Virus record (IMG/VR): IMGVR_UViG_3300037743_000193
Span: 1 to 29,777 of that record
DNA length: 29,777 bases
DNA from: a virus
Lineage: Duplodnaviria; Caudoviricetes
Strand: one strand, 5' to 3'
Part shown: positions 5,404-18,765 of the stretch, piece after piece
Layout of the letters: each line of letters opens with the position of its first letter
Position numbering within the stretch: the stretch's first letter is position 1
Notes under the pieces: model-generated
Databases searched by the model: none
The model's input: only the letters and a program-made list of their open reading frames with translations
What the model was told of the DNA's origin: nothing
Made by a program: the position numbers and the translations under genes

Positions 5404-6326
5404 TTTTTCTCCTTGTCGGCGTCTTCGGCTTCAGCCATGGCCCAAAGCTCCTCGGCTGTGTAACCGCGGTTGTTGCTACTCCCCTTCGGCTTCGGGATCG
5501 GCTGGTCCTCGTCCTCCCAGCACCGCCCGCGGACGTAGGTGGTGAAGTGCGGGATGAACGCCCGCTCCTGGTCCTTGGCGGGGACGTGCCTCCACGCCAG
5601 CTCGAGCCCGGTCATCTTCGCGAGCGCGGCGCTGTAGTCGCCCTGGGTCTGGATCTCGGACTCGGCTGCTTCGAGCCCGCGCTTCCGGTTGCGCTTGCGG
5701 GGGTACAGGTCGTAGAGCTTCGCGAGGTCGAACCGGGGAACGCACACGTCGGGGACGAGCAGTTGTGCGCCGCCCGGCGCACATATCTCCTGCTCCCTGC
5801 TACCTGCTACCTGCTCCCTGCTACCTGCTACCTGTATTTGCGAAAGGGCAGCGAAAGACTCTGCGAAAGCAGCCTCAAAGGCTTTGCCCAAGGCTTTCGC
5901 AAAGGCTTTAAGCTCTCGCCAGACCTCGACTTTTAGCTCGCAGTCAGGTACCCGATCCCACCCCTTCGCCCACCCCTTGATGCGGTTCGGGTTGGTGGGC
6001 TTGGTGCTCTTGCGCGCGGTCCCATCACGGTGCCTCAGTGCTCTCGGCAGCCAGATGAGTCCGGCCTTCGTGTCGGCTTTCGCTAAACCTTCCGACAAGA
6101 CTTCGGCAAAGGCTTTCGCAAAGGCTTTCGCGTCCCATCGGAGGTCGTCCGCAAGCACCGCTGGGCGCGCGATTATGACGCCCGGTATCTTGGTCGTCCT
6201 CCGCCCGGTCAGGAGATAGAGCCAGAGCGCTTGGCCGCCGGGCTCGAGGGGGGTCAGCTCACGGAAAGCGAGGTCGTCCCACATCTCGACCTCGACGGTC
6301 TTGTAGACGCGATGCTCTCGGCTCAC
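5400..6326 (-). CDS. Phage replication initiation protein
   Basis: N-terminal MWDD..FRELT..ALWLYLLT (HTH-type), a repeat-containing linker, and C-terminal F..LYDLYPRK...FIPHFTTYV.G.CWEDE. Confidence 0.82.
   Translation of the reverse strand: MSREHRVYKTVEVEMWDDLAFRELTPLEPGGQALWLYLLTGRRTTKIPGVIIARPAVLADDLRWDAKAFAKAFAEVLSEGLAKADTKAGLIWLPRALRHRDGTARKSTKPTNPNRIKGWAKGWDRVPDCELKVEVWRELKAFAKALGKAFEAAFAESFAALSQIQVAGSREQVAGSREQEICAPGGAQLLVPDVCVPRFDLAKLYDLYPRKRNRKRGLEAAESEIQTQGDYSAALAKMTGLELAWRHVPAKDQERAFIPHFTTYVRGRCWEDEDQPIPKPKGSSNNRGYTAEELWAMAEAEDADKEKK
5790..5834. repeat. Tandem heptamer CTGCT(C/A)C x6 (2 x 21 bp) inside the initiator gene
   Basis: Read directly from the sequence; encodes QVAGSRE twice. 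Confidence 0.95.
5838..6131. repeat. Iteron-like 12-bp-period repeats (putative replication origin)
   Basis: AAGGCTTT at 5878, 5890, 5902, 6109 and 6121, with degenerate copies at 6073, 6085 and 6097. Inverted GCGAAAG at 5840, 5851 and 5863. Locally AT-richer. Confidence 0.75.
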
Positions 6327-6826
6327 CGCACCCTCCAAATCAGCCCGGCATCGGCAAACGCCGTGAGGAAACACTCCGGCCGCCACCCGTGGTAAACGAA
6401 CGCGCTCGGGAACGGAGCCCCGGCTGGAGCTCCACGGAACGAAATGCGCCCGCGCCAGAAACAGATCGTGGCAGCCCGCTCGGCCAGCTTGCGGAATGCC
6501 TTCGAGTCCGTGCGCGACGGGACCAGCGTGATGATCTCGCAGTCAACCGAGGACTCGCGGTCGATCTTCTCGGCCCAGTTGAGCGGCCCGCGCCCCCTCG
6601 TGTACGGCGGGTTGCAGAACACGAGCCCGCCCGCCGCCATCTCGTGCCACGGCGCCTGGAGCCCGTCCGGCTCGTCCTCGGCCGTGATCCAGCGGACGGC
6701 CCCGGTCGGGTTGTCGGGCTCGGTGCAGGGGTCGAGCGCGATGGGGGCGATGGCTCGAACGCGGTCCAGGACGTGATCTGGGGTTTGCCACGTGGACTTG
6801 TCGCTGGAGAAGTGGACGCTGGTCAC
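6323..6826 (-). CDS. Phage DNA N6-adenine methyltransferase (Dam_phage-like)
   Basis: WQTP, LDPC, DGL..PW, VFCNPPY, LVPSRTD, GRISF and APFPS motifs. Confidence 0.92.
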   Translation of the reverse strand: MTSVHFSSDKSTWQTPDHVLDRVRAIAPIALDPCTEPDNPTGAVRWITAEDEPDGLQAPWHEMAAGGLVFCNPPYTRGRGPLNWAEKIDRESSVDCEIITLVPSRTDSKAFRKLAERAATICFWRGRISFRGAPAGAPFPSAFVYHGWRPECFLTAFADAGLIWRVR

Positions 6827-7110
6827 GCGGCCACCTCTTGCGCTAGGATCGGGGGATGCGGATCTGGGCTTGGGTGGCGCTGTCGGCTCTCCTGGCAGGG
6901 GTCGCCGGCGGGACCGGCTACTCGCTCGGCCATGTACGGGCCGAGGAGGCCGGCTGGGAGGCCGGCGAGGAGCGCGACCGAGTCCGAGCCCGCGCCCCGG
7001 ATTACATCTGGGTGGAACTCGACGGGGAGCGTGTGCCCGCTCGCTGCCGGGACCTCGATGGGATCCGGATCTCGCCCCGGAAGTGGCCTGAGTTCCGGTA
7101 GCCCCCTCAT
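6823..7110 (-). CDS. Bridge ORF, antisense to 6856..7101
   Basis: ATGA overlap with the CII-like stop and GTGA overlap with the MTase start. Product is Pro-rich with no recognisable fold. Confidence 0.4.
   Translation of the reverse strand: MRGLPELRPLPGRDPDPIEVPAASGHTLPVEFHPDVIRGAGSDSVALLAGLPAGLLGPYMAERVAGPAGDPCQESRQRHPSPDPHPPILAQEVAA
6844..6849 (+). promoter_or_regulatory. -10 element TAGGAT of a probable leaderless transcript
   Basis: Lies 6 nt upstream of ATG 6856; no convincing -35. Confidence 0.5.
6856..7101 (+). CDS. Small N-terminally anchored or secreted protein, antisense within the early operon
   Basis: MRIWAWVALSALLAGVAGGTGYSLG signal/TM segment; codons mostly end in G/C. Confidence 0.65.
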   Translation: MRIWAWVALSALLAGVAGGTGYSLGHVRAEEAGWEAGEERDRVRARAPDYIWVELDGERVPARCRDLDGIRISPRKWPEFR

Positions 7111-7481
7111 CCCTCCACCCCCGCCCGCTCAAGCAGCAGCCGCCCGACGTCCCCTTGAGTGCGCAGAACGGCCTTGAGCGCCGCCAGGTCCTCCTCGGGG
7201 CTCCTCGGCGCTCGCTCGAAGCGGCCCCCGCTCAGCCGCGCGAACCACTCGGCCACGCGCGGCGAGTGGACGGCGAAGTAGACCAGGTGCCGGGCCTTGA
7301 TGTGGCACCGGTCCCGGTCCGCGAGCATGTTGTCGAGGACGGTCCGGCTGACGTCGAGGTCGTAGGCAACCTCCTTGCGTCCGATGCGGTCGGCCTCCTG
7401 CCGGACGATCCCCAGCAGTTCCGGCCAGCGTTCCTCGCTCAGATAGGGGAAGGGGAACGCGAGGCGCACTTGCTCAGTCAT
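7107..7481 (-). CDS. CII-like regulatory protein
   Basis: Position after cro; GRKEVAYDLDVSRTVLDNML HTH-like segment. An alternative start exists at 7574. Confidence 0.6.
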   Translation of the reverse strand: MTEQVRLAFPFPYLSEERWPELLGIVRQEADRIGRKEVAYDLDVSRTVLDNMLADRDRCHIKARHLVYFAVHSPRVAEWFARLSGGRFERAPRSPEEDLAALKAVLRTQGDVGRLLLERAGVEG

Positions 7482-7583
7482 TTCGGCCGCCTGTCTCTGC
7501 TTGTGATTCGCAAGCGGCGCTAGGCGCCGGCCTGTGGATAAGGTGATTCCTCGATGCCACGGAGCCCACGACATCCATCGCCG

Positions 7584-7814
7584 CTAGCTGGCCTTCCGGC
7601 GCTTCTTGGTCCGCGGCAGGCGCCCGAACAGGAGCTCTTTCCGCGAGATCCCAAGGGCTCTCGCGATCGCCTCCTCGTTGTCGGTCCGGGGTGCGTAAAC
7701 ACCCGTTTCCCACTGGGAGACTGCCTGCGGGGTAACCTCAGCCAGCTCAGCCAGCTCTACTTGAGTCATTCCGCAGTCTTCGCGGAAGCGACGGATACGG
7801 AGACCTAGAGCCAT
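7584..7814 (-). CDS. Cro-like XRE-family HTH regulator
   Basis: LGLRIRRFRE..GMTQVELAELAEVTPQAVSQWETG..P motif; first gene of the leftward operon. Confidence 0.9.
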   Translation of the reverse strand: MALGLRIRRFREDCGMTQVELAELAEVTPQAVSQWETGVYAPRTDNEEAIARALGISRKELLFGRLPRTKKRRKAS

Positions 7815-7821
7815 GGATCTA

Positions 7822-7850
7822 TCGGTACCGAACCGCGGCTCAATAGTCAA
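7822..7850 (-). promoter_or_regulatory. Leftward early promoter: TTGACT-17-TACCGA, 7 nt before the cro ATG
   Basis: -35 at 7850-7845 and imperfect -10 at 7827-7822; overlapped by an operator. Confidence 0.6.
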
Positions 7851-7861
7851 GTCTAACTTGG
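7847..7861. promoter_or_regulatory. Operator palindrome TCAAGT-CTA-ACTTGG
   Basis: The reverse complement of 7846-7862 matches 8645-8661 at 16/17 positions. Confidence 0.8.
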
Positions 7862-7900
7862 AGAATCATCAATCCCGACTCGGCGCCAAACAGGCTAAAT

Positions 7901-7915
7901 TCAAGCCACGCTTGA
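7901..7915. promoter_or_regulatory. Operator palindrome TCAAGC-CAC-GCTTGA
   Basis: Perfect 6-bp arms; overlaps the A of the repressor ATG. Confidence 0.78.
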
Positions 7916-8340
7916 TGCGCAAGAAGCTCGACATCACCAAGTTTCCGCCGGGGTACGAGTTCCTCGTAACGGACCGCGCGGTTCACCTGATCAGGGAAAA
8001 GAAGGACCAGGAGAACTGGGGCAACGAGGAGTTGGCACGCCGCGGCAAGAAGGCAAGCCGGGGGCGGATGCCGATGACCGGCCAGTCCGTCAAGGAAGTA
8101 ATCCAGGCGGGGCCTGGGCGCAGGAGGAAGAGTAAGCTTATCCCCTACCTCCTGCTCGCTGCCGACGTCGAGCTGACGCTCGACCTGGTCCTACCCGTGG
8201 CCGACGGCGAGACCGCCGTGATCGTGGACCAGATGGAAGCGCGGGTCCTCGAGGTGCTCCGCGCCGAGCCCGAGATCTACGCGGTATTTGCTGCCGTTTC
8301 GAGACGCCTCAGCTCTCGCCTAGAAGAGCCCGAGCCCTAG
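7915..8340 (+). CDS. Putative phage repressor (atypical HTH, no S24 peptidase domain)
   Basis: Divergent from cro and lying between operator-bearing promoters; IREKKDQENWGNEELARR..MTGQSVKEVI is XRE-like. Confidence 0.6.
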   Translation: MRKKLDITKFPPGYEFLVTDRAVHLIREKKDQENWGNEELARRGKKASRGRMPMTGQSVKEVIQAGPGRRRKSKLIPYLLLAADVELTLDLVLPVADGETAVIVDQMEARVLEVLRAEPEIYAVFAAVSRRLSSRLEEPEP

Positions 8341-8581
8341 CAGCCACGCCCGCAAGTTCGGCTGTCCCACGAGCGGCCCTCGGTTGCGGCCATCCCTCCG
8401 CAGCCATTATGGCGCGCTCGATGTCCTCGATCGCCTGCTCGGCCTCCCTCCTGGCCGTGGCGAGGTCGGCGATGCGCCCGCCCTTCGTCCGCCAGCCTTT
8501 GTGGGCCTCCGAGATATGTGCCACCGCGCTGAGCAGTCGCTCAAGCGCCCTCCATTCTGGACCACTCTGATTCCACCTCAT
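8309..8581 (-). CDS. Hypothetical helical protein convergent with the repressor
   Basis: Fills the gap between the repressor and the rightward promoter; protein-like sequence. Confidence 0.5.
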   Translation of the reverse strand: MRWNQSGPEWRALERLLSAVAHISEAHKGWRTKGGRIADLATARREAEQAIEDIERAIMAAEGWPQPRAARGTAELAGVAARARALLGES

Positions 8582-8645
8582 GTCGTCTTTGGATGATGCT
8601 CTGGGTAGCTCCGGAGTGCCACAGGGGAGAGGCCCCGAATAAAAT

Positions 8646-8685
8646 CCAAGTTTGACTTGACGTGCGTCAAGCCAGGCTTTAACCT
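8646..8685 (+). promoter_or_regulatory. Rightward early promoter TTGACG-17-TAACCT with two operators (8646-8660, 8667-8681)
   Basis: -35 at 8657-8662, -10 at 8680-8685, ATG 6 nt later. Operators are CCAAGT-TTG-ACTTGA and TCAAGC-CAG-GCTTTA. Confidence 0.82.
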
Positions 8686-8691
8686 CGGACC

Positions 8692-8859
8692 ATGCAGTCC
8701 TTACTCGCCGAGCGCCGCCAACTCATCCGCCTCTTGCGCCTGGCCGAGGACCGGGTCGAGCGCGAGCTCCTCTGGCACTCCATCATCCAGCTCGACGCCA
8801 AGGCCGGACTCGACGAGGACCGGCACCTGGCCGAGTTCGTGGCGGGGGCCGAGCGATGA
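8692..8859 (+). CDS. Small helical protein, 55 aa, first gene of the rightward operon (not in the ORF track)
   Basis: MQSLLAERRQLIRLLRLAEDRVERELLWHSIIQLDAKAG...; ATGA overlap with the next gene. Confidence 0.75.
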   Translation: MQSLLAERRQLIRLLRLAEDRVERELLWHSIIQLDAKAGLDEDRHLAEFVAGAER

Positions 8860-9137
8860 TCGAGCACGGCCACATCGACAGTCCTATCCGGATCGCCATC
8901 GCCCGCGCCGATCACTACGCCGCCCATCGCGCTGTCACCGCTGACGCTGATGCCTTTGTCGCCGGCACCGTCGATCGCTACGTGTGGCCCTCCGAGCCCG
9001 AGTGGGACGAGCCCGGGATGCGACTGGTGGGCGGTCGGTGCCCGGCGTGCGGTAGTGACCTCGCCATCGAGGTGGCCGAGGACCATCCGCTGGTTGCGGA
9101 GCTGAGCCGGCCACGAAAGAAGAGGGGTTCGAGATGA
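8856..9137 (+). CDS. Hypothetical protein with a CPACG motif
   Basis: Coupled at both ends. Confidence 0.7.
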   Translation: MIEHGHIDSPIRIAIARADHYAAHRAVTADADAFVAGTVDRYVWPSEPEWDEPGMRLVGGRCPACGSDLAIEVAEDHPLVAELSRPRKKRGSR

Positions 9138-9958
9138 AGTTCACCCCCGAGATGCCTCTGAATTTTTCGCGGATCAAATACGCCGACACCAGCCCCAAGC
9201 ACTTCAAGGCCGCGTGCCTCAGCCAGCTCCAGCGCGACACCCTGGGCATGCGCAAGGGCTCGGTCGGCCACTGCCTCACCCTGGAACCGGATCGGTTCAA
9301 GGAGCGGTACATCGTCTGGGAGCACGGCGACCGGCGCGCGAAGGGCTACAAAGCGTTCGCGGCCGAGGCTGCGGCTAACGGGCTCGTCGTCCTGACCAAG
9401 CCCGAGTTCGAGGCCGCCCGCGAGATGGCCGCCGCGATCAACACGGACCCAATCGCCGCCGCGCTGCTCTCGGACCCGAATGCGATCGTCGAGCAGCGTT
9501 TGTTCTGGACCGACAAGGAGACCGGGCTCGCCCTCGCCGGCACGCCCGACTACGTCTCAGTCCGCGACAACGTTCTGCCTGACATCAAGACTACGGCCCT
9601 GGCCGAGGTGCCATGGGAGAAGTACGCCGGTCGCCAGAACCTGCACTGCCAGATCGCCATGTACATCGACAGCTGCCGGGCGAACGGGATCGATATCAAC
9701 GACGAGGCCGGCCACTGGATCGTCCCGGAGTCGTCCCAGCCCCATGACGTTGTCTGCTACCACGTGCCGAGCGATGTCGTAGAGGAAGGACGGCGCCGGT
9801 ACCAGAGCTGGCTCGTCCGGGTCGCCGAGTGCATCGAGTCCGGCGAGTGGCCGGGCCGGGCCGGGGACGTGCGCGAGTACAACCTGCCCCTGTGGCGGTA
9901 TCTCGATCGCGAGGAGCCCGTGACGCTCACCATCGGTGGCGAGGAGATGACGATCTGA
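9134..9958 (+). CDS. RecE/exonuclease VIII-like PD-(D/E)XK nuclease (DUF3799-type)
   Basis: G...HCL.LEP, EQRLFW.D.ETG...GTPD, DIKTT and QIAMY motifs. Confidence 0.88.
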   Translation: MKFTPEMPLNFSRIKYADTSPKHFKAACLSQLQRDTLGMRKGSVGHCLTLEPDRFKERYIVWEHGDRRAKGYKAFAAEAAANGLVVLTKPEFEAAREMAAAINTDPIAAALLSDPNAIVEQRLFWTDKETGLALAGTPDYVSVRDNVLPDIKTTALAEVPWEKYAGRQNLHCQIAMYIDSCRANGIDINDEAGHWIVPESSQPHDVVCYHVPSDVVEEGRRRYQSWLVRVAECIESGEWPGRAGDVREYNLPLWRYLDREEPVTLTIGGEEMTI

Positions 9959-10356
9959 TGCCCCACTGGAGACTGCTGATCCCGACCCGGTACGTGTCCT
10001 TCGCCGACCTTCGCGGCCGGGACGTTGTTGCGACCATCGAGTCCGTTTCGCGCGAGGAGATGGTCGAGAAGGACAAGAAGACGAAGAAGACCCGGAAGGT
10101 CAAGCGGGCCGTGGTCAGGTTCGTCGGCGAGGAGAAAGGCATGGTCCTGAAAGCCACCAACGCCGGAACGATCGTGGACCTGTACGGGACCGAGACCGAA
10201 AACTGGATCGGGAAGCAGATCACCCTGTTCCCGACCACGTGTTCCGCATTCGGGAAATCTGGCGTCGAGTGCGTTCGGATCCGGCCCGAGGTCCCGCCGC
10301 CGCCCAAGTCCCGCAACCAGCAGGCGGACGAGCCCATAGACGGAGCCAACCAGTGA
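9958..10356 (+). CDS. Conserved phage protein, putative OB-fold ssDNA-binding/recombination partner
   Basis: YVSFADL.G.D...TI..V, LKATN...I..LYG.ETENWIGKQITL, VRIRP. Occupies the RecT position. Confidence 0.65.
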   Translation: MPHWRLLIPTRYVSFADLRGRDVVATIESVSREEMVEKDKKTKKTRKVKRAVVRFVGEEKGMVLKATNAGTIVDLYGTETENWIGKQITLFPTTCSAFGKSGVECVRIRPEVPPPPKSRNQQADEPIDGANQ

Positions 10357-10622
10357 TCGACCTCAGTGCCCAAGACCGAGCCATCGCCGCCATCCGCGTC
10401 GAGCGAATGCGCCAGGAGCGTCTCAAGGCCGCCGGCAAGTTCGCCGCGACGCCCGCCGACGACATCCCGGACACGGACCGGCTGCCGATGCTTGTCGAGG
10501 AAGTGGGCGAGGTGGCGAGGGCTCTGTGCGACGGGACGAATCTGAGGGAGGAACTGGTCCAGGTCGCGGCGGTGGCTCTGGCCTGGGTCGAGGCGCTGGA
10601 GAAGATGGAGTCCGACTCATGA
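10353..10622 (+). CDS. MazG-like nucleotide pyrophosphohydrolase
   Basis: ER.RQ, LVEEVGEVARAL and LREELVQVAAVALAWVE motifs. Confidence 0.85.
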   Translation: MIDLSAQDRAIAAIRVERMRQERLKAAGKFAATPADDIPDTDRLPMLVEEVGEVARALCDGTNLREELVQVAAVALAWVEALEKMESDS

Positions 10623-10966
10623 CCCCCCTCGAAAAGCTCCGGCACCTGCGCTCGCTCGCGGCCATGGCGACCCCGAGGCCGTGGAAGGTCCGGCGCGAAG
10701 CCACTGACGGCTTCATCGACTACCAGATCCACGACGGAACCGGCGGACACCTCGCGGCGTGTTCGGAGCTAGCCAACGATCTCGCCCGCGCTGATGCGAG
10801 GTACATCGCCGCCGCCGCGAACCTGCTGCCCGCGCTGGTCGAGTTCGCGGAGGGGATTCGCCACGTCTACGACACCTGCCCCGGCGAAAGCCGCGGGATG
10901 GTCATGGTGAGGATGTCGGACGCCCTTGCCGCCCTCGAGCGCGCCCTGGAGGCCGACCATGTCTGA
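10619..10966 (+). CDS. Ead/Ea22-like protein
   Basis: LA..ATPRPW...ADARYIAAAANLLPAL motif. Confidence 0.75.
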   Translation: MTPLEKLRHLRSLAAMATPRPWKVRREATDGFIDYQIHDGTGGHLAACSELANDLARADARYIAAAANLLPALVEFAEGIRHVYDTCPGESRGMVMVRMSDALAALERALEADHV

Positions 10967-11204
10967 GCGCGCTGGGCCACGGGTCTACGCCGAGATCGTC
11001 TACGAGTGCCGCGGCTGCTGCCACCTGCGAACGGTGACGCGGCGCGAGCACTTCGGAGACCACGCTATTGACCCGGAGGATCCGATCTCGCTGTGCGCCG
11101 CGCCCTCGATCGTGAGCAAGTACAGCTTCCCGCAGGCGCTCTGGGATGGCTACAACCCGAGGGCGCCCGAGTGGTGCCCGTACCGGAGGACCGACGATGG
11201 CTGA
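10959..11204 (+). CDS. Small Cys-rich protein
   Basis: CRGCCH...C...APEWCPY; GGAGG SD. Confidence 0.7.
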   Translation: MSERAGPRVYAEIVYECRGCCHLRTVTRREHFGDHAIDPEDPISLCAAPSIVSKYSFPQALWDGYNPRAPEWCPYRRTDDG

Positions 11205-11400
11205 GTCGCGCTACGTGTATCTCGGCGCCAAGATGACCCGCCCCGAGCTAGTCGGCGCCGGCTGCGACCCGGTGCGGCGCCCCGATGGCAAGTGCATCGT
11301 CGGCCGCAACGCCACCCAGTTCGTCCGCTTCGAGGACGGGGAGGAAGTGGTCGTCATGCGGCGCCGGCTGCGGCTGAGGAGCAAGCTCGATGCCCGATGA
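11197..11400 (+). CDS. Hypothetical protein
   Basis: ATG 11197 with a GGAGG SD; overlaps its neighbours. Confidence 0.7.
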   Translation: MAESRYVYLGAKMTRPELVGAGCDPVRRPDGKCIVGRNATQFVRFEDGEEVVVMRRRLRLRSKLDAR

Positions 11401-11725
11401 ACTGCACCCGACAACCGGAGCCATCAACCCCGACTGCGAGCGGGCGGACTGGTGGCGCGAGGCATTCGGCGGCCTCGAGGTCCCGCTCGTATCGCCCGTG
11501 GCGCAGCTGTGGCTGGTCCCTGGCGTCGACGGCGTCGAGGGGGAACATCTCGTCTACCAGGTCGACGTGAGCAAGCTCGGCGGCGACCAGATCGATCGAG
11601 TGGCCCGCGTGGTCGCCGCTCAGTTCGACCTCGACGTGGCCTCGGTACGTGCGGACATCGAACGTGAGGGGATTCCGATCCTGGCCGAGGACGTCGTGGT
11701 TTCGTTTGACGCGAGGTGGCTCTAA
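11390..11725 (+). CDS. Hypothetical protein
   Basis: GAGGAG SD; acidic, globular-looking sequence. Confidence 0.72.
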   Translation: MPDELHPTTGAINPDCERADWWREAFGGLEVPLVSPVAQLWLVPGVDGVEGEHLVYQVDVSKLGGDQIDRVARVVAAQFDLDVASVRADIEREGIPILAEDVVVSFDARWL

Positions 11726-11955
11726 TGGCCGGCGAGTCGCGCTGCAAGAAGTGCCGCGAGCTGATCGTCTGGGCGACGACGGCGGCCGGCAAAAACATCC
11801 CGCTTGACCCGGTGCCGGTCCTCGGCGGCAACCTCGAGAAGGACCACGACGAGGTCCGCTACGTCACGCCCGACCCCGAGGTCCGGCGCTACGTCTCCCA
11901 CTTTTCGACGTGCCCGGCGGCGGCGAGCTTCCGGCGATCGCGAGGACGGAAGTGA
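11725..11955 (+). CDS. Small Zn-binding phage protein
   Basis: CKKC..I.W.TT..GK.IPLD...YVSHFSTCP pattern. Confidence 0.78.
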   Translation: MAGESRCKKCRELIVWATTAAGKNIPLDPVPVLGGNLEKDHDEVRYVTPDPEVRRYVSHFSTCPAAASFRRSRGRK

Positions 11956-12404
11956 GCGCCCGCATCCCCACGCCCGAGGAGCGGCGCGAGTTGGCGCGGC
12001 TGCTAGATGCCGCCACCGAGCGGCCGTGGTCGTGGGAGCAAATTGGCGAGAAGGTGAATGGCTACGTCATCGGCGTCGCTTTTACCGAGGATGGCGAACC
12101 GATAGCCGGGCGAGTTCAAGAGCCGGACTTTGTGGTGGATGGGATACTAGTCGGCGAACACGAAGCCGCGACATGCAACTACGACGACCCGGGGCTGATC
12201 GTCACAGCCGTGAACGCCCTCCCCGGCCTCCTCGCCGCCCTCGATCTGGCTGAGCGAGCGCTGATCGAAGTCGTGGCAGACGGCGAGCGTCGAGACCATT
12301 ACGACACCTGTTCCCGCGCGCTGAGCGAGGCGAACGACTGCGATTGTGGACTGGGGATCGCTCGCACCGCACTCTTCGGGCTCCGCGGGGAGGGCGGGTC
12401 GTGA
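11952..12404 (+). CDS. Second Ead/Ea22-like protein
   Basis: LLDAATERPW...D..LIV.AVNALP.LL; C-terminal H..TC..CDCG. Confidence 0.7.
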   Translation: MSARIPTPEERRELARLLDAATERPWSWEQIGEKVNGYVIGVAFTEDGEPIAGRVQEPDFVVDGILVGEHEAATCNYDDPGLIVTAVNALPGLLAALDLAERALIEVVADGERRDHYDTCSRALSEANDCDCGLGIARTALFGLRGEGGS

Positions 12405-12661
12405 GCGGCCTCTTTCTCGGCACGTGGTGTTTCGACTGCGGCCCGGACGTTGGCGTGGACGAGGACGGGTGCTGTGTGACGTGCGGCGACGGTGCCCTGG
12501 GAGACGGCGCGGATGAGGCGCACCGGATCAGAGCCGAGCGCGACCGGCTCCGGGCGGCGCTGGAGGAGATCGCGAACCTACCGGCCCGGTACTTTCCCAA
12601 TGCCGTAGAGATCGCCAAGTCCGCCCTCGCCGACGACCGTGCAACCGGGGAGGAGTCATGA
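12401..12661 (+). CDS. Zn-ribbon plus coiled-coil protein
   Basis: CFDCG..VDEDGCCVTCG, ERDRLRAALEEIA. Confidence 0.7.
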   Translation: MSGLFLGTWCFDCGPDVGVDEDGCCVTCGDGALGDGADEAHRIRAERDRLRAALEEIANLPARYFPNAVEIAKSALADDRATGEES

Positions 12662-13110
12662 AGCTGTACGAGGACGCCCGGCTACCGAAGCGTTTCTGGG
12701 ACAAGGTGAGGATCGATCCCGGGTCGGGGTGTTGGCTTTGGACGGCGTGCGAGAGAGGCAAGGGGTACGGCAGCTTCTGGTTCGGCGGCAAAATGAACCA
12801 GGCCCACCGGGTCGCCCGCGAGGTGCTCGTCGGCGAGATCCCACGGGGATTGCAGACCGATCATCTCTGCCGCGTTCGGCGCTGCGTCAACCCCGAGCAC
12901 CTCGAGCCGGTCACCTCCAGAGAGAATACGCTCAGGGGCGACACGGCCCCGGCGGCTAATGTCGCCAAGACCCACTGTCCCCAGGGCCACCCGTATGACG
13001 AAGGCAACACGTACGTGGCCAGGGGCGGCGACAGGAAATGCCGGAGATGCGATCGGGATCGCAGGCGGGCCTATAGACAAAGGGCGCGACAGGAGGGGGA
13101 GTCATCGTGA
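12658..13110 (+). CDS. HNH endonuclease
   Basis: RFW.KV, CWLW, GYG, AHRV and DHLCRVRRCVNPEHLEPVT..EN motifs. Confidence 0.92.
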   Translation: MKLYEDARLPKRFWDKVRIDPGSGCWLWTACERGKGYGSFWFGGKMNQAHRVAREVLVGEIPRGLQTDHLCRVRRCVNPEHLEPVTSRENTLRGDTAPAANVAKTHCPQGHPYDEGNTYVARGGDRKCRRCDRDRRRAYRQRARQEGESS

Positions 13111-13388
13111 TGTCTTGCAGGAGGTGCTCCGAACCAGCCGCCGTCCAGCTGCCGAGGGGTGAGCGGCTCTGTTCCGGGTGCGCAGTAGGGCGGATTCGGC
13201 TGCTGGCGGCTCAGCGCGACGAGGCCCGGGCCGCGCACAATGAAGTCGCCACCAGGCTCGAGACCTGCCTCGGCGAACTCCGAGAGGCCCGGGCCGAGGT
13301 GGAGCGGCTGCGACGGGACCTCGACGCGTGCAAGGCGGTGCTCGGGTTCATCGCCAGCCACGCCCCCGACCCGGAGCCCGGCGAGTGA
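13107..13388 (+). CDS. Zn-ribbon plus coiled-coil protein
   Basis: CRRC...CSGC followed by heptads; coupled at both ends. Confidence 0.65.
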   Translation: MMSCRRCSEPAAVQLPRGERLCSGCAVGRIRLLAAQRDEARAAHNEVATRLETCLGELREARAEVERLRRDLDACKAVLGFIASHAPDPEPGE

Positions 13389-13612
13389 CCCGGGACCTCG
13401 ACCGCGAGCTGGCCCGGCGGCTGGGGCCAGAGGAGATCCTCACCGTCACCCAGGCCGCTCGTTTCCTAGGGGTTGCGCGCCGATCCCTGTACGAAGCCAT
13501 CGGCCGCCTCGAGGTTCCGCACCGAAGGATCGGCCGCCGCATTGTTCTTTCCCGCGCCGCCCTCGTACGATGGCTGGACTCGTGCGAGGCGCCGGCCAGG
13601 AATGGAGCCTGA
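13385..13612 (+). CDS. xis: Excisionase (HTH_17-like)
   Basis: ILTVTQAARFLGVARRSLYEAI...VPHRRIGRRIVL...L.RWL; directly upstream of the integrase. Confidence 0.88.
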   Translation: MTRDLDRELARRLGPEEILTVTQAARFLGVARRSLYEAIGRLEVPHRRIGRRIVLSRAALVRWLDSCEAPARNGA

Positions 13613-14691
13613 TGGCTGCCTACAAGGACGACACCGGCCGATGGCGTTACCGGAGGCGGATTCGTTTACCTAATGGGAAGCGGACCCGCATCAAAGGGAC
13701 GCCGGAGACCAACACCCGAGCCGCGGCAGAGGCGGCCGAGCGGGACCGCATCTGGAGATTGCAGAACCCGCTGGCCTTTGCCGACGCCACACCAAAGGAG
13801 GTACCGACACTCAGAGAATACACCGACCAATTCCTCAACGGCTACGCCGCCGATCACAAGGAGCGGAGCCGCGAGGAGAAACGACGCATCCTCGACACGT
13901 ACATCCTGGAAGAACTCGGCGAGCTCCGGCTCAGCGAGATCACCCAGGCGACCATCGACACCCTCAGGGCCGACCTACTCCGGGGCCGAACGACGAAGAC
14001 CGCGGCGAACGTGCTCGCGGTCCTGTCCTCGATCATGAAGTACGCGGCACAGAACGGGCTCATCAGCGTGGCCGGCTTCCGGTTCACGGTGAAGTCCGAC
14101 GAGGGGGCCGAGGTTGAAGCCGTGCCCGCGGTGGACATCGGCAAGCTGATCGCAGCGACGCCAGACCACCGTTACCGGGTGATGATCCTGCTCGCCGCCG
14201 AAGCCGGGCTCAGGGCCGGAGAGATCCGCGCCCTGGAGTGGGCCGACATCGACGGCGAGCTGCTCAACATCCGGCGCGCCCTCGACACCCGGAACCGCCC
14301 GACATCGACCAAGAGCCGGCGCCATCGCCGGGTGCCCGTCAGCCACGAGCTCGCGGGCGCCCTCGATCGGCATCGGCAGACCGGACCGACCGTGGTCACC
14401 AAGTTGCGGTCACCGGGCCCGCTCACCTACTGGGCGATGCGGGATGGGATCCTCTCGGTGTACGACGCCGCGGGGGTCCGGGTGCCGTCGATGCCCTGGC
14501 ACGCGCTCCGTCACAGCTACGGGACCGCCCTCGCTCGCGCGGGTGTCCCGGTAGAGGTGATCCGCAAGGCGATGGGTCACGCCTCCATTGCGACGACCCT
14601 TCGCTACTTCCACACCGACGATGACGACCTCATCGCCGCCGCCCGTTCGACGTTTGGGCCCACACTGGGCCCGAGCTCGGATCTGGCATGA
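13612..14691 (+). CDS. int: Tyrosine integrase
   Basis: Catalytic set GLRAGE, TKS, HALRH, MGH and RY; N-terminal arm-binding region (WRYRRRI). Confidence 0.96.
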   Translation: MAAYKDDTGRWRYRRRIRLPNGKRTRIKGTPETNTRAAAEAAERDRIWRLQNPLAFADATPKEVPTLREYTDQFLNGYAADHKERSREEKRRILDTYILEELGELRLSEITQATIDTLRADLLRGRTTKTAANVLAVLSSIMKYAAQNGLISVAGFRFTVKSDEGAEVEAVPAVDIGKLIAATPDHRYRVMILLAAEAGLRAGEIRALEWADIDGELLNIRRALDTRNRPTSTKSRRHRRVPVSHELAGALDRHRQTGPTVVTKLRSPGPLTYWAMRDGILSVYDAAGVRVPSMPWHALRHSYGTALARAGVPVEVIRKAMGHASIATTLRYFHTDDDDLIAAARSTFGPTLGPSSDLA

Positions 14692-14729
14692 GAAAAACCC
14701 GCGAAACCGGAATGGTCTCGCGGGCTTCC
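14692..14729. terminator. Hairpin terminator (U-tract on the minus strand, possibly bidirectional)
   Basis: AAACCCGCGAAACC-GGAAT-GGTCTCGCGGGCTT; follows both the int stop and the tRNA fragment. Confidence 0.8.
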
Positions 14730-14732
14730 TGT

Positions 14733-14754
14733 TGCGACCCCAACGGGATTTGAA
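14733..14754 (-). other. attP core = tRNA 3' fragment (T-loop plus acceptor strand; Glu/Asp-like)
   Basis: Minus strand reads TTCAAAT-CCCGT-TGGGGTC-G-CA; the 5' part of the tRNA is absent. Confidence 0.85.
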
Positions 14755-14880
14755 GACGTAAAGCAACCCTAACAGGGCCGGCGCCTTGCACGAGTTTCGC
14801 GCCGTTAGGGGAGCGTCCAATGGCATCTGGTTGCACCGGATGTCCTGCAAGTGGGCCCGAAAGGCCCGGGGTGACCTCCC

Positions 14881-15366
14881 ATGTCTGATGAAGTTTGGAA
14901 ACCAGTGCCGGATCTGCCCGGCGTGGAGGCGAGCAGCCGAGGGCGGATCCGCATCGACGGAACCGTCCGTCGATCCTCGTCGAGTAATGGCTACCTCCGC
15001 GTCCAGCCCAAGATCGACGGGAAGAAGCGGTGCCTCTACGTTCACCAGCTCGTCCTGGCGGCCTTCGTGGGCCCGCGGCCTCCCGGCCTCGTCTCGCGTC
15101 ACCTGGACGACAATCCGCTCGACAACCGCCCGGAGAACCTCGCCTACGGGACCCAGGCACAGAACATGGCTGACCGTGACAAGCATGGCAACGGCCCTAC
15201 CGGCGCGCGCAACGGCCGCTCTAAGCTGACCCCGGCGTTAGTCCGACTCGTCCGTCTAGCCCGAAAGGGGGGTGCCTCGTTTCAGGCCATCGCCGACGCG
15301 GTCAACATGAACTCGACGACCATCCAGGACATCTGCAAGGGCCGCCTATGGAAGGATGTGGCGTGA
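14881..15366 (+). CDS. NUMOD4-type HNH endonuclease with a C-terminal HTH
   Basis: EVWKPV, SS.GRIR, NGYL.V, YVHQLV..AF.G, RHLDDNP.DN..ENL..GT...N and SKLT motifs. Confidence 0.9.
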
Positions 15367-15473
15367 CACGCGGATTTTCAGTCCCCGTGCTGCGCTCGCT
15401 AAAGGGAGGGAAATCGAATGGATAAGAAACGAACCGAGACCGATGGGACGCCGATGGGACGAGGAGGTAAGGG

Positions 15474-15614
15474 ATGAGTCCAGAGACAAAGGTTGATGCA
15501 GTGATCGAGATGCTGGCGGAGTTGGTCCGGCTTCAAGCGCCAAACCGCGTACTCCACGAGATCGGGGTGTGGCTGGCAACGCTCAGCGACGAGAGCGAGG
15601 CCCAGGATGGATAG
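15474..15614 (+). CDS. Small protein, 46 aa (not in the ORF track)
   Basis: GAGGAGG SD; MSPETKVDAVIEMLAELVRLQAPNRVLHEIGVWLATLSDESEAQDG. Confidence 0.6.
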   Translation: MSPETKVDAVIEMLAELVRLQAPNRVLHEIGVWLATLSDESEAQDG

Positions 15615-15873
15615 GGACATGCGCGCCCGCATCGAGGCCATCGTTCGGCCCATCCTGTGGGAACACATCGACCCCCTCAGCTGCGAGGTGGACGAGCAGA
15701 TCGCGCTCGTGGACGCCGCGGTGGAGTGCTACGGGGCCGGAGACGGAGGCCGGTACGGGCGCGCACTGGAGCAGATTCTCGCCCTGGAGAACGACCCCTC
15801 GCCCGACTGGCAGAAGCTGATGCGCGCTCTCGCTATCGCCAAGGCGGCCGTTGACGGAGTGGACGTTCGATGA
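15607..15873 (+). CDS. Hypothetical helical protein
   Basis: Overlaps the previous ORF; G/C-ending codons. Confidence 0.65.
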   Translation: MDRDMRARIEAIVRPILWEHIDPLSCEVDEQIALVDAAVECYGAGDGGRYGRALEQILALENDPSPDWQKLMRALAIAKAAVDGVDVR

Positions 15874-15906
15874 TTACCGAGGCCGGACACCAGAAGAGGC
15901 GCGACG

Positions 15907-16074
15907 ATGGGAGGTAAGCCCCGCACGGGGCCGACCGTGCCCTGGCCGCGGCTACCCTGCGACTGCCACGCCGTTGCCTGGCGAGCGGCGTGGCTTGGGG
16001 GCTGCCCCGTTCACGTCTGCAACGCCTGCGGTCGAATCAGGCGCGAGGAGCTGGGGCGCTGGTGGAACGACTAA
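15907..16074 (+). CDS. Small Zn-ribbon-like protein, 55 aa (not in the ORF track)
   Basis: AGAGG SD; ...PCDCH...VHVCNACGR. Confidence 0.5.
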   Translation: MGGKPRTGPTVPWPRLPCDCHAVAWRAAWLGGCPVHVCNACGRIRREELGRWWND

Positions 16075-16123
16075 ACCCGCCGCAAAAACCGCCCTCGCCG
16101 CCACCATGTGAGCCCGCTCGTCT

Positions 16124-16501
16124 CTAGCCCCACCGCGCCGGCTTCGGTCGGATGTCGTAGTGAGTGAACGTCGCGTATCGCCCAACCCCGCCGTTGCGCA
16201 TCCGCCCTTCCCGAACCAGGCGCAGGATAGTCGCGTGGACCTTCCGGGCCGGCACTCCGCGCACCACGATGTCGGCAGCCCTGGCGTAGAGGTGCTGGCT
16301 GGTCTTCCCGCCGCCGACGCCCCGGTTGTAGGCCGGGTGCCGGTAGCCGCTGTTGACCTTGATCACCTTGCCCCCGAGCTCGGCCCGGAGCACCTCGAGC
16401 TGCTCGGCGAGGCACGTGACCCGGGCCAGCCACCTCGCCGGGACCGGGGTCCCGTCGCGGCAAGAGAACTCGTCCAACCAGAAATGAGGCGTGAGCTTCA
16501 C
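16124..16501 (-). CDS. Endolysin, peptidase M15A (Zn D-Ala-D-Ala carboxypeptidase-like)
   Basis: LTPHF.L.EF, NSGYR...N..VGG..SQH...AAD and FTHYD.R motifs. Confidence 0.9.
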   Translation of the reverse strand: MKLTPHFWLDEFSCRDGTPVPARWLARVTCLAEQLEVLRAELGGKVIKVNSGYRHPAYNRGVGGGKTSQHLYARAADIVVRGVPARKVHATILRLVREGRMRNGGVGRYATFTHYDIRPKPARWG

Positions 16502-16740
16502 AACCGGTCCTTCCCCTCTTTCGTCCTCAGCGCCCGGACCATGCACGATGCGCAGATCATCACGACGCTGACCTGGATCCGGGTCAAAGCCGGCGCGCCA
16601 CACAGGCGGTGGTGCCGGCTCTCGCCCTGCCAGTGGCGCCGGGTGCCATCGACGAGATGCCACGTCTGCCACTCCCCGTCCGTGACCGGCAGCCAACGCG
16701 AGCCCTCGGGCGGGCCCAGGGTGACGACGGTTAGGGTCAA
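16498..16740 (-). CDS. Small His/Cys metal-binding protein
   Basis: WH...LCG...CASC; TTG start, and its stop overlaps the endolysin GTG. Confidence 0.55.
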   Translation of the reverse strand: MTLTVVTLGPPEGSRWLPVTDGEWQTWHLVDGTRRHWQGESRHHRLCGAPALTRIQVSVVMICASCMVRALRTKEGKDRL

Positions 16741-17264
16741 CCGAACGCCCCGTGTCGATTTGTTTGATTTACGGGTTGACGGCGCCGCGGAGATGCCTTA
16801 GATTGAGAGTCATGAACACGACGCAGACCACCGGAACCCAGCACCTCATCGCCCGCGCCGCCAAGGACAGCCGCGTCGCCGGACTCCTCCAGGACGTCTA
16901 CCGCTACGGCCGGCGCGGGGACTACGTGCTCCAGGAGCAGGCCCTCAAGACCCTGGACGACTACTGCCAGGGAGATTTCTCGGCTCGCGACGCGGCCGCC
17001 GCCGCCGAGAGCCAGGAGAGCAGGATCGCGAGGGCGAAGGAGCTGCGCGGCGAGCTGGCTGACGCCGCTGCGGAGCTCTACGGCGAATGAGCCCCCGCGG
17101 AGGCCCACGCCCCGGCGCCGGTCGCAAGCGGCGCCGGGTGCGGCTCCAAGCCTACGTCGAGCCCGAGCTAGCCGAAGCCGTGGAGCGCGCCGCCGATGAT
17201 GCCTGCCTCGAGATCCAGGACTGGCTGCGGCGGGCGCTGAGCCGGGCGGTCGAGTAGCGGTCAC
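16737..17264 (-). CDS. Bridge ORF spanning the antisense cassette
   Basis: GTG 17264 overlaps the stop at 17261-17263; its TGA overlaps TTG 16740. Product is shadow-like. Confidence 0.3.
   Translation of the reverse strand: MTATRPPGSAPAAASPGSRGRHHRRRAPRLRLARARRRLGAAPGAACDRRRGVGLRGGSFAVELRSGVSQLAAQLLRPRDPALLALGGGGRVASREISLAVVVQGLEGLLLEHVVPAPAVAVDVLEESGDAAVLGGAGDEVLGSGGLRRVHDSQSKASPRRRQPVNQTNRHGAFG
16776..16804 (+). promoter_or_regulatory. Sigma70-type promoter TTGACG-17-TAGATT, leaderless
   Basis: ATG lies 7 nt after the -10; AT-rich tract upstream at 16757-16771. Confidence 0.82.
16812..17090 (+). CDS. Moron-like protein of unknown function (92 aa)
   Basis: Own promoter; G/C-ending codons; antisense to the late operon. 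Confidence 0.78.
   Translation: MNTTQTTGTQHLIARAAKDSRVAGLLQDVYRYGRRGDYVLQEQALKTLDDYCQGDFSARDAAAAAESQESRIARAKELRGELADAAAELYGE
17087..17257 (+). CDS. Ribbon-helix-helix-like DNA-binding protein, 56 aa (not in the ORF track)
   Basis: MSPRGGPRPGAGRKRRRVRLQAYVEPELAEAVERAADDACLEIQDWLRRALSRAVE; ATGA overlap. Confidence 0.78.
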   Translation: MSPRGGPRPGAGRKRRRVRLQAYVEPELAEAVERAADDACLEIQDWLRRALSRAVE

Positions 17265-17434
17265 CCGAACACCTCCGACCGCTCCAGCCGCTCCATCGCC
17301 GCCACGTACTCGATCACGAGCCGGGCGACATCGAACCGGGGCCCGAGCCGCCACAGCTCATCGTGCGGGAAGCTGGGGAGCTCGGGCCGGTCCATGCGCA
17401 GGGTCTGGCGGCTGGTGCTCGTGCGGGACCTCAT
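17261..17434 (-). CDS. Small hypothetical protein
   Basis: ATG 17434 overlaps the upstream stop. Confidence 0.55.
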   Translation of the reverse strand: MRSRTSTSRQTLRMDRPELPSFPHDELWRLGPRFDVARLVIEYVAAMERLERSEVFG

Positions 17435-17601
17435 TCCTCGCCGTCCCGCATCTGAACCGCGCAATGCATGCGGCACGGCTCCGAGATGGTAACGGTGGCC
17501 GCCACGAGCCGGCCCGCGATGTACTGGTGCGCGATCCACAGCAGCTGCTGGAACACGGCCCAGCGCCCATCGACGACCTGGTGCCCGGACTCGCGGCTCA
17601 A
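17431..17601 (-). CDS. Small hypothetical protein, 56 aa (not in the ORF track)
   Basis: TTGA and ATGA overlaps; ..DGRWAVFQQLLWIAHQYIAGRLVAATV.. Confidence 0.55.
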   Translation of the reverse strand: MSRESGHQVVDGRWAVFQQLLWIAHQYIAGRLVAATVTISEPCRMHCAVQMRDGEE

Positions 17602-17933
17602 GGCACCCTCGGCTTCTGCTCAGTCAGCCGTGGGACCCGACTCCGGTCGTAGCACTGCCCGACCGCGTGCAGCCCCGCCCTCGGTCCCCAGAACTCGGCC
17701 AGCCACTGAGCCCGCTTGCAGGTAGCGAGCGAGTCCGCGCAGAAAGTCACCCACTCACCCGTGTTGGTCACGCCCTGGACGCAGGTCGTCGGCGGCTCGA
17801 TGTGCGGTGCCGGGGCCAGGGGTGCCGCCTTGGACCCGCACCCGCAAACCAGCACCACCAGCCCCAGGATCAGCCCGAGCAAGCCCGCGATCAAGGTCGC
17901 CCGCCCTCCGGGATCGTGGCCGCCGAAGGTCAC
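17598..17933 (-). CDS. Putative lipoprotein
   Basis: Hydrophobic stretch then LVCGC/GS, a Pro-rich linker and four further Cys. Confidence 0.6.
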   Translation of the reverse strand: MTFGGHDPGGRATLIAGLLGLILGLVVLVCGCGSKAAPLAPAPHIEPPTTCVQGVTNTGEWVTFCADSLATCKRAQWLAEFWGPRAGLHAVGQCYDRSRVPRLTEQKPRVP

Positions 17934-18079
17934 GGGCTCTCCCTCGACGTCCGCCCTGTCTTGCGGTATGGTGACAGGTAATTCGGCCCTGGTTGCCGAA
18001 GGGGGACCGCTCGTATGGGCGGTCGAGCAAGGGCCGGCAGCAATGTCGGCCTTTGTCTTTTGGGGCTGATTAAGGTCAC
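17930..18079 (-). CDS. Bridge ORF (49 aa) spanning the antisense RNA locus
   Basis: GTGA overlaps at both ends, 50 codons, no internal stop. Atypical codons. Confidence 0.3.
   Translation of the reverse strand: MTLISPKRQRPTLLPALARPPIRAVPLRQPGPNYLSPYRKTGRTSRESP
17944..17972 (+). promoter_or_regulatory. Promoter TCGACG-17-TATGGT
   Basis: Same geometry as the promoters at 8657 and 16776; the -10 is bracketed by CCTGTC/GACAGG. Confidence 0.6.
17979..18061 (+). ncRNA. Candidate ~83-nt structured small RNA
   Basis: Three consecutive hairpins whose G-U pairs work only on the + strand. The last has a GCAA tetraloop and a U-rich tail. Confidence 0.6.
18029..18061 (+). terminator. Intrinsic terminator
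   Basis: AAGGGCCGGCA-GCAA-TGTCGGCCTTT followed by GTCTTTT. Confidence 0.7.
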
Positions 18080-18291
18080 GGGTCCTTGGTCAGCTCGAGG
18101 TAGTGGTCGATGATGTCGTCAGCCCGGGACAGTCGCTTCTCGGCGTCGTCGGCGGCCACCTGGAGCAGCCGCATCCCGATCGCTTGCAGCCTTACGCGGT
18201 CGCTCGGGACAGTGGCCGAAAGCATCTTGCTCAGCTCCCCGATCTCGTCGGCGGGCGCCATTTGCTCCTCGGGCGTTTTCTCTCTGGTCAT
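18076..18291 (-). CDS. Hypothetical helical protein
   Basis: GGAG SD; G/C-ending codons. Confidence 0.7.
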   Translation of the reverse strand: MTREKTPEEQMAPADEIGELSKMLSATVPSDRVRLQAIGMRLLQVAADDAEKRLSRADDIIDHYLELTKDP

Positions 18292-18452
18292 CGCGATCTT
18301 CTCCGTCTTTGCATGGGCCGTCTCCGGTCCCGGTCAGTTACCTCGCGGTTGAACTCGCTCCAGCAGTTGTGCGGCGCCGGCTGGCGTTCGCGGATCTCCC
18401 GGTACAGGTCGATACACGAGAAGGCCCAGTCCACGATCACGAGCGGGTTCAT
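18288..18452 (-). CDS. Small hypothetical protein, 54 aa (not in the ORF track)
   Basis: MNPLVIVDWAFSCIDLYREIRERQ...; ATGA overlaps at both ends. Confidence 0.55.
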   Translation of the reverse strand: MNPLVIVDWAFSCIDLYREIRERQPAPHNCWSEFNREVTDRDRRRPMQRRRRSR

Positions 18453-18634
18453 GGCTTCTCCAATTCGCGCCGCTCCCCGGCCTCGTAGCCGGCGATGAGA
18501 GCGCGAACCATGTCCTCAGCCATACTGAACTCCCTGGCCAGGGTCGCGAGATCGTCCCCGGCCCGGTACTGATCGGTCAGTGCTGCGGCGAGGGACAAGC
18601 CGACCACCCGCGGCGTGGTGAGGTATCGGGTCAT
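18449..18634 (-). CDS. Small HTH-like protein
   Basis: YRAGDDLATLAREFSMAEDMVRALI resembles a DUF433-type HTH. Confidence 0.55.
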   Translation of the reverse strand: MTRYLTTPRVVGLSLAAALTDQYRAGDDLATLAREFSMAEDMVRALIAGYEAGERRELEKP

Positions 18635-18765
18635 CGTCGCTCCCTCTCGCAGGACTTCTCCGCGCTCTGGTCCCCGCTCTCGGCCGAGTCGGCGGCGCTG
18701 CGGGGGCACGTTCGGCCGCCACCGCATGCGGATAGGAGTAGGAGGGTGACGACAAGGCGGGTCAC
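18631..18765 (-). CDS. Small lipoprotein (44 aa)
   Basis: MTRLVVTLLLLSAC|GGG canonical lipobox; coupled at both ends. Confidence 0.65.
   Translation of the reverse strand: MTRLVVTLLLLSACGGGRTCPRSAADSAESGDQSAEKSCERERR

Follow-up and report, generated by a model that had tools for sequence, protein, structure and literature searches.

The stretch analysed here (the window) comprises the 29,777 nucleotides (nt) of virus record IMGVR_UViG_3300037743_000193, a 29.8 kb record with a GC content of 68% and a temperate-phage gene set. Three plus-strand units lie within its minus-strand operons, and each is spanned by one minus-strand open reading frame (ORF) free of stops, hereafter called a bridge: bridge 1 runs from 7110 to 6823 (95 amino acids, aa), bridge 2 from 17264 to 16737 (175 aa) and bridge 3 from 18079 to 17930 (49 aa). 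The units are likely self-promoted accessory inserts (morons) in lytic operons whose genes are coupled stop to start, and the minus-strand frame over each of them, judging from its sequence, likely serves as a relay for ribosomes, its peptide being irrelevant. We lean slightly towards a scenario in which chance supplies the bridges and selection for ribosome passage sieves them; under it, translation of the bridges would be predicted. The parts of this mechanism which are directly observed and described below are the geometry of the bridges, the duplication of a junction by unit 2, the exchange of the cargo of unit 1 with the bridge kept, and the freedom of bridge 2 from protein-level constraint.

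Geometry of the bridges

Each bridge is joined to its neighbours by 4-nt NTGA overlaps, which are ATGA and GTGA for bridge 1 (between a cII-like gene and a Dam-family methyltransferase gene, dam), GTGA and TTGA for bridge 2 (between the genes up2 and down2), and GTGA at both ends for bridge 3 (between up3 and down3). A preliminary description of the sequence had reported these ORFs and overlaps, and on re-check the coordinates and the absence of stops were borne out, as were all six overlaps with their letters. All six also have the −4 or −1 stop/start overlap by which termination-reinitiation is judged. The main argument of that description, namely the recurrence of the overlaps at all six junctions, loses most of its weight, as they are mostly accounted for by junction duplication and by a high base rate. 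Indeed, 4-nt overlaps are the normal junction type in this phage, being found at 22 of its 48 co-directional junctions (self-trained gene finder), and each of bridges 2 and 3 has at its two ends a direct repeat that holds the NTGA, so that the six junctions are not six independent events.

Codon log-odds obtained with a self-trained model are −0.7, −27 and −15 for bridges 1, 2 and 3, and +15.6, +42 and +11 for the plus-strand genes, respectively the gene of unit 1 (the slot-1 gene) and genes A and B of unit 2. Bridges 2 and 3 thus score as non-coding-like, in line with the suggestion that the bridge peptides are shadow sequence, and bridge 1 is ambiguous. A second minus-strand frame is likewise open across units 1 and 3.

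A Shine-Dalgarno (SD) sequence lies inside the upstream frame at three of the six junctions (the starts of dam, bridge 2 and down3) and is weak at the other three, the scores being 3.6 at the start of bridge 2 and 0.8 at that of down2. As the SD requirement in re-initiation is reported to differ between gene pairs (PMC6728339), re-initiation is compatible with the weak sites in front of bridges 1 and 3. The starts of dam and bridge 2 are predicted to lie in hairpins (z about −2.7), and none of 22 ordinary junctions reaches z of −1.9 or lower in this post hoc comparison, based on 60 shuffles each; such burial would be in keeping with starts that depend on the arrival of a ribosome. At 18079 the fold z is low as well, which was discounted, since a hairpin of unit 3 falls inside that folding window. 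The preliminary description had named different true starts of the downstream genes as a way in which its proposal could fail, and the three starts hold up: the homolog P0006 aligns with down2 from residue 2 and the empty allele described below has GTG at the same place, the Dam profile match begins at residue 3-7 of dam, and a relative's contig diverges exactly at the start of down3.

Unit 2 and its empty site

Unit 2 is a plus-strand cassette formed by a promoter-like site (16776..16804; TTGACG, 17 nt, TAGATT) located 7 nt before an ATG and predicted to give a leaderless transcript, by gene A (16812..17090, 92 aa) and by gene B (17087..17257, 56 aa). Gene A has no Pfam, PHROG or Atlas match. 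Gene B is ribbon-helix-helix-like, with a match to the NikA-like family PF21983 that is below the cutoff (E 0.006) and no related loci in a metagenome search, and it likely encodes a DNA-binding regulator. On the minus strand, bridge 2 (16737..17264, 175 codons) connects up2 (17261..17434; codon score +13, with the SD GGAGGT inside it) to down2 (16498..16740, 80 aa; P0006, E 5e-8), which has a TTG start and a weak SD and is itself coupled to an M15 peptidase endolysin gene (16124..16501, minus strand; PF08291, E 3.8e-18; phrog_894).

An empty site of this cassette is present in a sediment contig of run X3, in which position 16726 is joined to 17259 with 8 colinear letters; the evidence consists of one contig of 612 nt, at a depth of 10.3 and with 77 nt on its short side. 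Endolysin loci with a GC content of 29-42% and no DNA in common with the window (25 loci) had been left out. In the empty allele up2 is coupled straight to down2 via a GTGA behind a strong SD, and the 15-nt sequence that brackets bridge 2 (left copy 16735..16749, right copy 17259..17273, 13 of 15 letters identical) is there in single copy. The insert of 524 nt has duplicated one stop/start junction, and therefore both overlaps of bridge 2 are copies of a single one. The strong SD and the GTG remained with the upstream copy, now the start of bridge 2, and down2 retains a TTG preceded by a weak SD; the start and SD of the bridge are the ancestral start of down2. Because of this distribution, the need for a relay looks greatest at bridge 2. 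In contigs of runs X3 and X2, a gene-B-like sequence occupies the same slot with other DNA before it.

The promoter-A-B cassette is mobile, being found again, 92% identical, at an unrelated site in another phage, L001. There, at the end of the prophage, it comes after a plus-strand gene and is next to an integrase gene and an attachment site that is transfer-RNA-like by eye. Between the two copies gene A is 91% identical, and the promoter differs at none of the 12 hexamer positions and at 6 of the 17 in the spacer. The ratio of non-synonymous to synonymous change (dN/dS) is 1.4 for bridge 2, 0.54 for gene A and 0.10 for gene B; the earlier expectation of selection that bypasses the peptide, with dN/dS near 1, thus agrees with what is found at bridge 2. 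In both phages the bridge 2 frame is open over the promoter, gene A and the out-of-register gene B, and the other two minus frames across the cassette hold 8 and 5 stops. The openness of bridge 2 came with the cassette, and selection, if any, acted on which insertion survived.

The program scan lists no standard terminator after gene B, so antisense read-through over the late genes is possible. A hairpin predicted at 17235-17295, formed between the ends of the cassette and of up2, covers the SD of bridge 2 and on the plus strand might end transcription of the cassette.

Slot 1 and its occupant in a relative

Slot 1 lies on the minus strand between the cII-like gene (7107..7481; phrog_101, E 3.6e-4) and dam (6323..6826; PF05869, E 1.3e-13). 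Bridge 1 (6823..7110, 95 codons), which goes from ATGA to GTGA and holds the SD of dam, is codon-aligned with the plus-strand gene that it covers (6856..7101, 81 aa, codon score +15.6). The product of this gene has an N-terminal hydrophobic helix, noted by eye, and is likely an exported or membrane moron protein. A putative leaderless promoter found by eye precedes it on the plus strand (6820..6855; TGGTCA, 18 nt, TAGGAT, 6 nt, ATG); it is absent from the program's promoter scan, and its −35 box TGGTCA is the reverse of the dam start junction. A homolog search with the slot-1 gene gave the self match only, no related loci were found for it and the Atlas search returned nothing above the bar; searches for loci related to dam, and with the cII alignment in metagenomes and genomes, gave none, and bridge 1 has no homolog among 28 candidates.

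In a relative, L030, the cII-like gene is 98% identical and is followed by an unrelated antisense gene of membrane type (103 aa) and by an unrelated methyltransferase gene. This slot is bridged too, by 116 codons with GTGA at both ends and a codon score of −14, and neither the antisense proteins nor the bridges align between the two phages. Common to both is a 29-nt leader, which carries the putative leaderless promoter on one strand (in L030 with the same spacing and, by eye, similar hexamers) and the SD and start of the methyltransferase gene on the other; the stop-side spacer differs by 3 nt. It would seem that the antisense gene was swapped from start to stop with the flanks kept, in which case the register is kept by itself. 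As an out-of-sample case, the L030 bridge has a null probability of 0.036 if its register is free and of 0.33-0.40 if inherited. What L030 displays at slot 1 is a replacement, with no empty site. An origin of the slot-1 gene by inversion, with short inverted repeats on either side, was considered and dropped, as it would remove the cII stop and the gene of L030 has the same orientation.

In both antisense gene units a box resembling a −10 element is followed by the ATG after only 6-7 nt (window 6820-6856 and 16776-16812), with counterparts in L030 (8743-8780) and L001 (4965-5001), which suggests leaderless messenger RNAs for accessory genes of this phage group.

Unit 3, a predicted RNA unit

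Bridge 3 (17930..18079, 49 codons) connects up3 (18076..18291, 71 aa; codon score +27, no family) to down3 (17598..17933, 111 aa; codon score +15), all on the minus strand, and is bracketed by 11-nt perfect direct repeats (17927-17937 and 18073-18083). The gene down3 has its own SD inside the bridge and encodes a hydrophobic helix followed by Cys, so that its product is possibly a lipoprotein. On the plus strand the bridge covers a candidate small-RNA unit (17944..18061) with promoter-like hexamers, seen by eye, and three hairpins, the last with a T-rich tail. The preliminary description had taken this segment for an RNA locus, which is consistent with its folding (z −3.79, with 1 of 200 shuffles equally stable); on the other side, it has no Rfam match (the whole window gave one chance match elsewhere, E 0.9), the program scan lists neither promoter nor terminator for it, and its hairpin pattern has no homolog in viral contigs. 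No stretch of at least 11 nt complementary to it occurs elsewhere in the window.

The 11-nt repeat, taken alone, points to the same junction-duplication origin as for unit 2. A search for loci related to down3 gave none, and the contigs of relatives that cover it have other DNA upstream and no empty site. Positions 17968-18036 are not covered by any contig, a gap to which no weight is given. The −10-like box of the unit lies between the arms of a 6-bp inverted repeat (17954-17978), possibly an operator.

Expectation by chance and occurrence in other phages

Codon-aligned antisense stops occur at 0.0068 per codon (39/5735), and the probability that the frame is open, P(open), is 0.40, 0.22 and 0.34 for bridges 1, 2 and 3, in agreement with the earlier caveat that antisense frames are often open in GC-rich DNA. 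The three antisense units of the window are all open and in register. An estimate of chance, for which a simulation had been proposed, gives, with the register included, per-unit nulls of about 0.069, 0.021 and 0.11 and a joint value of 1.6e-4, which is rough and post hoc. Gaps between co-directional genes (36 of 142 with doubly coupled fillers, 13.8 expected) were rejected as evidence, most of the fillers looking like real small genes that the gene finder had overlooked.

We have surveyed 25 named temperate phages with a GC content of 58-69%, plus G001, for islands, defined as one to three antisense genes inside an operon. Outside the window and L030 there are 18 islands, one of them in G001, and in 3 of these a relay frame is open and ends on the downstream start. 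The annotation check covered these three, with strong Pfam hits in three others, and led to the exclusion of the Bradissa gp55 island, whose sense gene is annotated and protein-like; on this basis 2 of 17 islands are bridged, where 0.33 would be expected (P 0.04). Bridging is thus not a universal rule.

Outside the window the full case is found in Xavia, where gp61, a hypothetical gene by its sense-strand annotation, conceals an antisense gene of 191 aa (L077:7910-8485; Xavia 43910-44485). Its homologs Redi gp59 and BIB10 gp52 (L138 and L139) have the same forward-strand annotation. The forward frames comprise 258 codons in Xavia, 270 in Redi and 215 in BIB10, and all are coupled at both ends, the upstream coupling of BIB10 running through an unannotated ORF. 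Among the three, dN/dS is 0.31-0.47 for the antisense frame and about 0.8 for the forward one, the antisense genes hold no TTA, CTA or TCA codon, and the chance that the forward frames stay open over the observed changes is about 0.06 in a simple model that may understate it. The antisense gene matches the gene 57 region of phage Butters at 85%. In Butters, the reverse gene 57r is reported to lie wholly within 57f, to be expressed in lysogens and to be necessary and sufficient for defence, gene 57 overlaps gene 58 by 4 bp, and lysogens were obtained with a constructed mutant that lacks the 57 region entirely (bioRxiv 10.1101/2023.01.03.522681); the main text of this preprint contains neither 'coupling' nor 'polar', and 57f is not read there as a relay.

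The conserved protein at Xavia gp61, Redi gp59 and BIB10 gp52 is the reverse-strand gp57r homolog, which 31 phage records match; among the matches listed are three M. abscessus prophages at about 40%, one of them under a feature named DNA methylase. At Dolphis gp97 (L086:15211-15699), an annotated antisense gene lies under a 212-codon frame that runs from a CTG at the upstream stop to the GTG of the next gene.

Proposed mechanism and alternative explanations

An insertion that duplicates a coupled junction puts a start at one end of the insert and a TGA at the other, as observed for unit 2 and presumably also for unit 3, and, given GC-rich codon use, the facing frame is open in 20-40% of cases. 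A ribosome that ends the upstream gene would re-initiate at the overlapping bridge start, cross 150-530 nt of insert that, if untranslated, would be uncovered and exposed to Rho (PMC12548453), stop on the start of the downstream gene and re-initiate there. Inserts that are out of register or carry stops would uncouple or polarise the downstream replication and lysis genes and be lost, this loss acting as the sieve. The selection on ribosome passage put forward in the preliminary description receives moderate comparative support, as a second occupant of slot 1, that of L030, and the Butters 57f/57r family in three contexts are bridged. A number of observations weigh against it. In L001 the cassette has the direction of the neighbouring gene, with no operon to bridge, and the bridge 2 frame is open there as well; 41 random changes would leave this frame open 44% of the time. 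Among the outside islands 15 of 17 are unbridged, one of the two bridged ones (Dolphis gp97) begins with CTG, and the full case alone corresponds to P 0.28. Both dam and down3 have their own SDs, while bridges 1 and 3 start behind weak ones. Junction repeats alone are 1-2% events among junction pairs, and repeats like those of unit 3 a 1% event (12/1081); for unit 1 and unit 3 alike, no empty site was found. Finally, the window was picked for its pattern from a very large scan, so that the joint probability is not a test.

Several of these points would equally fit a neutral by-product, in which the overlaps come from junction duplication or kept flanks, the open frames from GC-rich DNA and the triple from luck in a large scan, the downstream genes starting on their own SDs and translation of the bridges, if any, having no effect. 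The unbridged islands, the open frame of L001, the SDs of dam and down3, P(open) values of 0.22-0.40, the base rate of 22 in 48 junctions and a register that L030 could have inherited through a start-to-stop swap all speak for it; however, it has to account for three frames, all open and in register, within a single genome and for another in L030, for a Butters family that has remained open and doubly coupled at three lengths, and for the loss of the SD of down2, whose start is now TTG, and we consider this explanation rather unlikely. We regard it as improbable that the bridge peptides, above all that of bridge 1, are real proteins or gene remains, forming two-protein overlaps like olg1/gene 10 of Fc02. 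Bridge 1 scores near zero and not negative, and it ends like a coupled phage gene with an SD in its last codons; the forward frames of Xavia and Redi end in a conserved Cys-rich tail resembling a real small gene, and exclusion activity is reported for both overlapping genes of Fc02 (PMC9936078). Yet bridge 1 has no homolog and does not align to the L030 bridge of the same slot, bridges 2 and 3 and that of L030 have codon scores of −27, −15 and −14, dN/dS of bridge 2 is 1.4, and Butters without the 57 region still formed lysogens (bioRxiv 10.1101/2023.01.03.522681). It is very improbable that the cassettes are pre-adapted, a stop-free back strand being a trait of the mobile unit kept for harmless landing in operons: the frame of bridge 2 is indeed open in both the window and L001 next to minus frames with 8 and 5 stops, but these are two copies only, 92% identical, for which the chance of staying open is 0.44. 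Ribosome passage as the sieve on chance bridges thus remains the explanation that we favour. A wider rule for temperate phages, by which antisense cargo, defence genes and non-coding RNA units among it, is kept in tightly coupled operons only if its back strand is a translated, doubly coupled dummy frame, is put forward tentatively.

Comparison with known systems

Phage morons of the HK97/HK022 type are inserts that bring a promoter and a terminator of their own and separate genes which relatives have side by side. Cassette 2 resembles them in its predicted own promoter, its empty site in a relative and its copy elsewhere in another phage, and it lies between genes that are adjacent in that relative. 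Its promoter is a predicted consensus site, and those of units 1 and 3 were recognised by eye; the program scan lists no terminator for the three units, unit 3 having a hairpin with a T-rich tail. Cassette 2 differs from these morons in that its GC content is not below that of the host phage and its back strand is open and coupled.

Mycobacterial interspersed repetitive units (MIRUs) are mobile DNA reported to land at a start codon with an inner ORF coupled at −4 spacing, which has been proposed to limit the effect on the target gene (PMC12548453). Unit 2 is likewise an insert at a start codon with a −4-coupled ORF, and unit 3 presumably so. MIRUs, however, are short, repeated and without cargo, whereas the units found here are unique, 146-524 nt long and carry an antisense promoter with genes or RNA, the relay frame being the back strand of the cargo. 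In this phage record the three units share no sequence, and the 20 repeat families listed within 1200 nt include none of the MIRU kind. Termination-reinitiation coupling is described at ATGA overlaps (PMC6728339), and comEB is reported to be dispensable as a protein while its translation is needed for comEC (bioRxiv 10.1101/2020.12.30.424838). The bridges resemble these cases in their −4 overlaps, at three of the six junctions in the SD within the upstream frame, and in that translation rather than product would matter. They differ in the upstream ORF, which is an ordinary gene in those systems and in this phage the shadow frame of an antisense unit. The system thus works like a MIRU insertion combined with comEB and is not a MIRU, its units being unique and their cargo antisense.

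In Fc02, a lysogen-expressed gene is overlapped on the other strand by an ORF of the lytic operon, and both products of olg1/gene 10 are reported to be active (PMC9936078), unlike here, where the lytic-strand frames give no sign of protein-level selection where testable; at bridge 2, with a dN/dS of 1.4, selection of this type does not act on both frames, and bridges 1 and 3 have no homolog for such a comparison. Butters 57f/57r is alike in that a reverse-strand defence gene expressed in lysogens is contained in a forward ORF with a 4-bp overlap to the following gene. This likeness to the window is one of architecture, and beyond it no sequence likeness was found or looked for.

A literature search, whose coverage mostly excluded subscription journals, returned no description of relay frames over antisense phage inserts. 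New from the window are an allele with the empty site, the swap in slot 1, a bridge that spans a predicted non-coding unit and the link to the cultured phage Butters; the empty/filled pair at junction 2 shows a bridge arising in one step. If the proposed selection is true, phage mosaicism is under a selective constraint that concerns frame openness rather than protein, and some long antisense overlaps are explained without two functional proteins. A class of mis-annotation would also follow, with the coupled dummy frame preferred by gene callers and the antisense gene overlooked, as with Butters 57r. Should the wider rule hold, many 'hypothetical' genes, for example Butters 57f, would be ribosome bridges that hide a gene on the opposite strand, and doubly coupled ORFs that are not protein-like would serve to flag hidden defence genes in searches. 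With one silent stop, the relay idea is testable in a laboratory strain at the Butters locus.

Gene organisation of the phage

According to Pfam and PHROG profiles, the minus strand carries a cro-like helix-turn-helix gene (7584-7850), the cII-like gene, dam, a replication initiator and a helicase loader, as well as the M15 endolysin and large late genes, and the plus strand carries an exonuclease and an integrase. Megablast of positions 6000-18700 against named phages gave no match, and a genome search with the integrase gave no related loci. The gene at the repressor position (7813-8340), divergent from cro, has no Pfam or PHROG match. Within the replication initiator gene there are 12-nt periodic repeats (5851-5909 and 6070-6128), which are likely origin iterons or a repeat-coding segment.

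A stretch of 31-36 nt is common to three otherwise different phages (window 12532-12567, L001 7937-7972, L030 3107-3137), and many contigs have loose ends near position 12571 of the window; the region around 12532-12571 is likely a recombination hot spot. Contigs of runs X1-X3 skip 15359-16071 and 18448-18631, which indicates additional slots of variable gene content close to the regions of attachment and lysis. Unrelated gene junctions have 12-14 of 16 letters in common (6323 and 17598; 8856 and 10353), which hints at junction microhomology used in gene shuffling.

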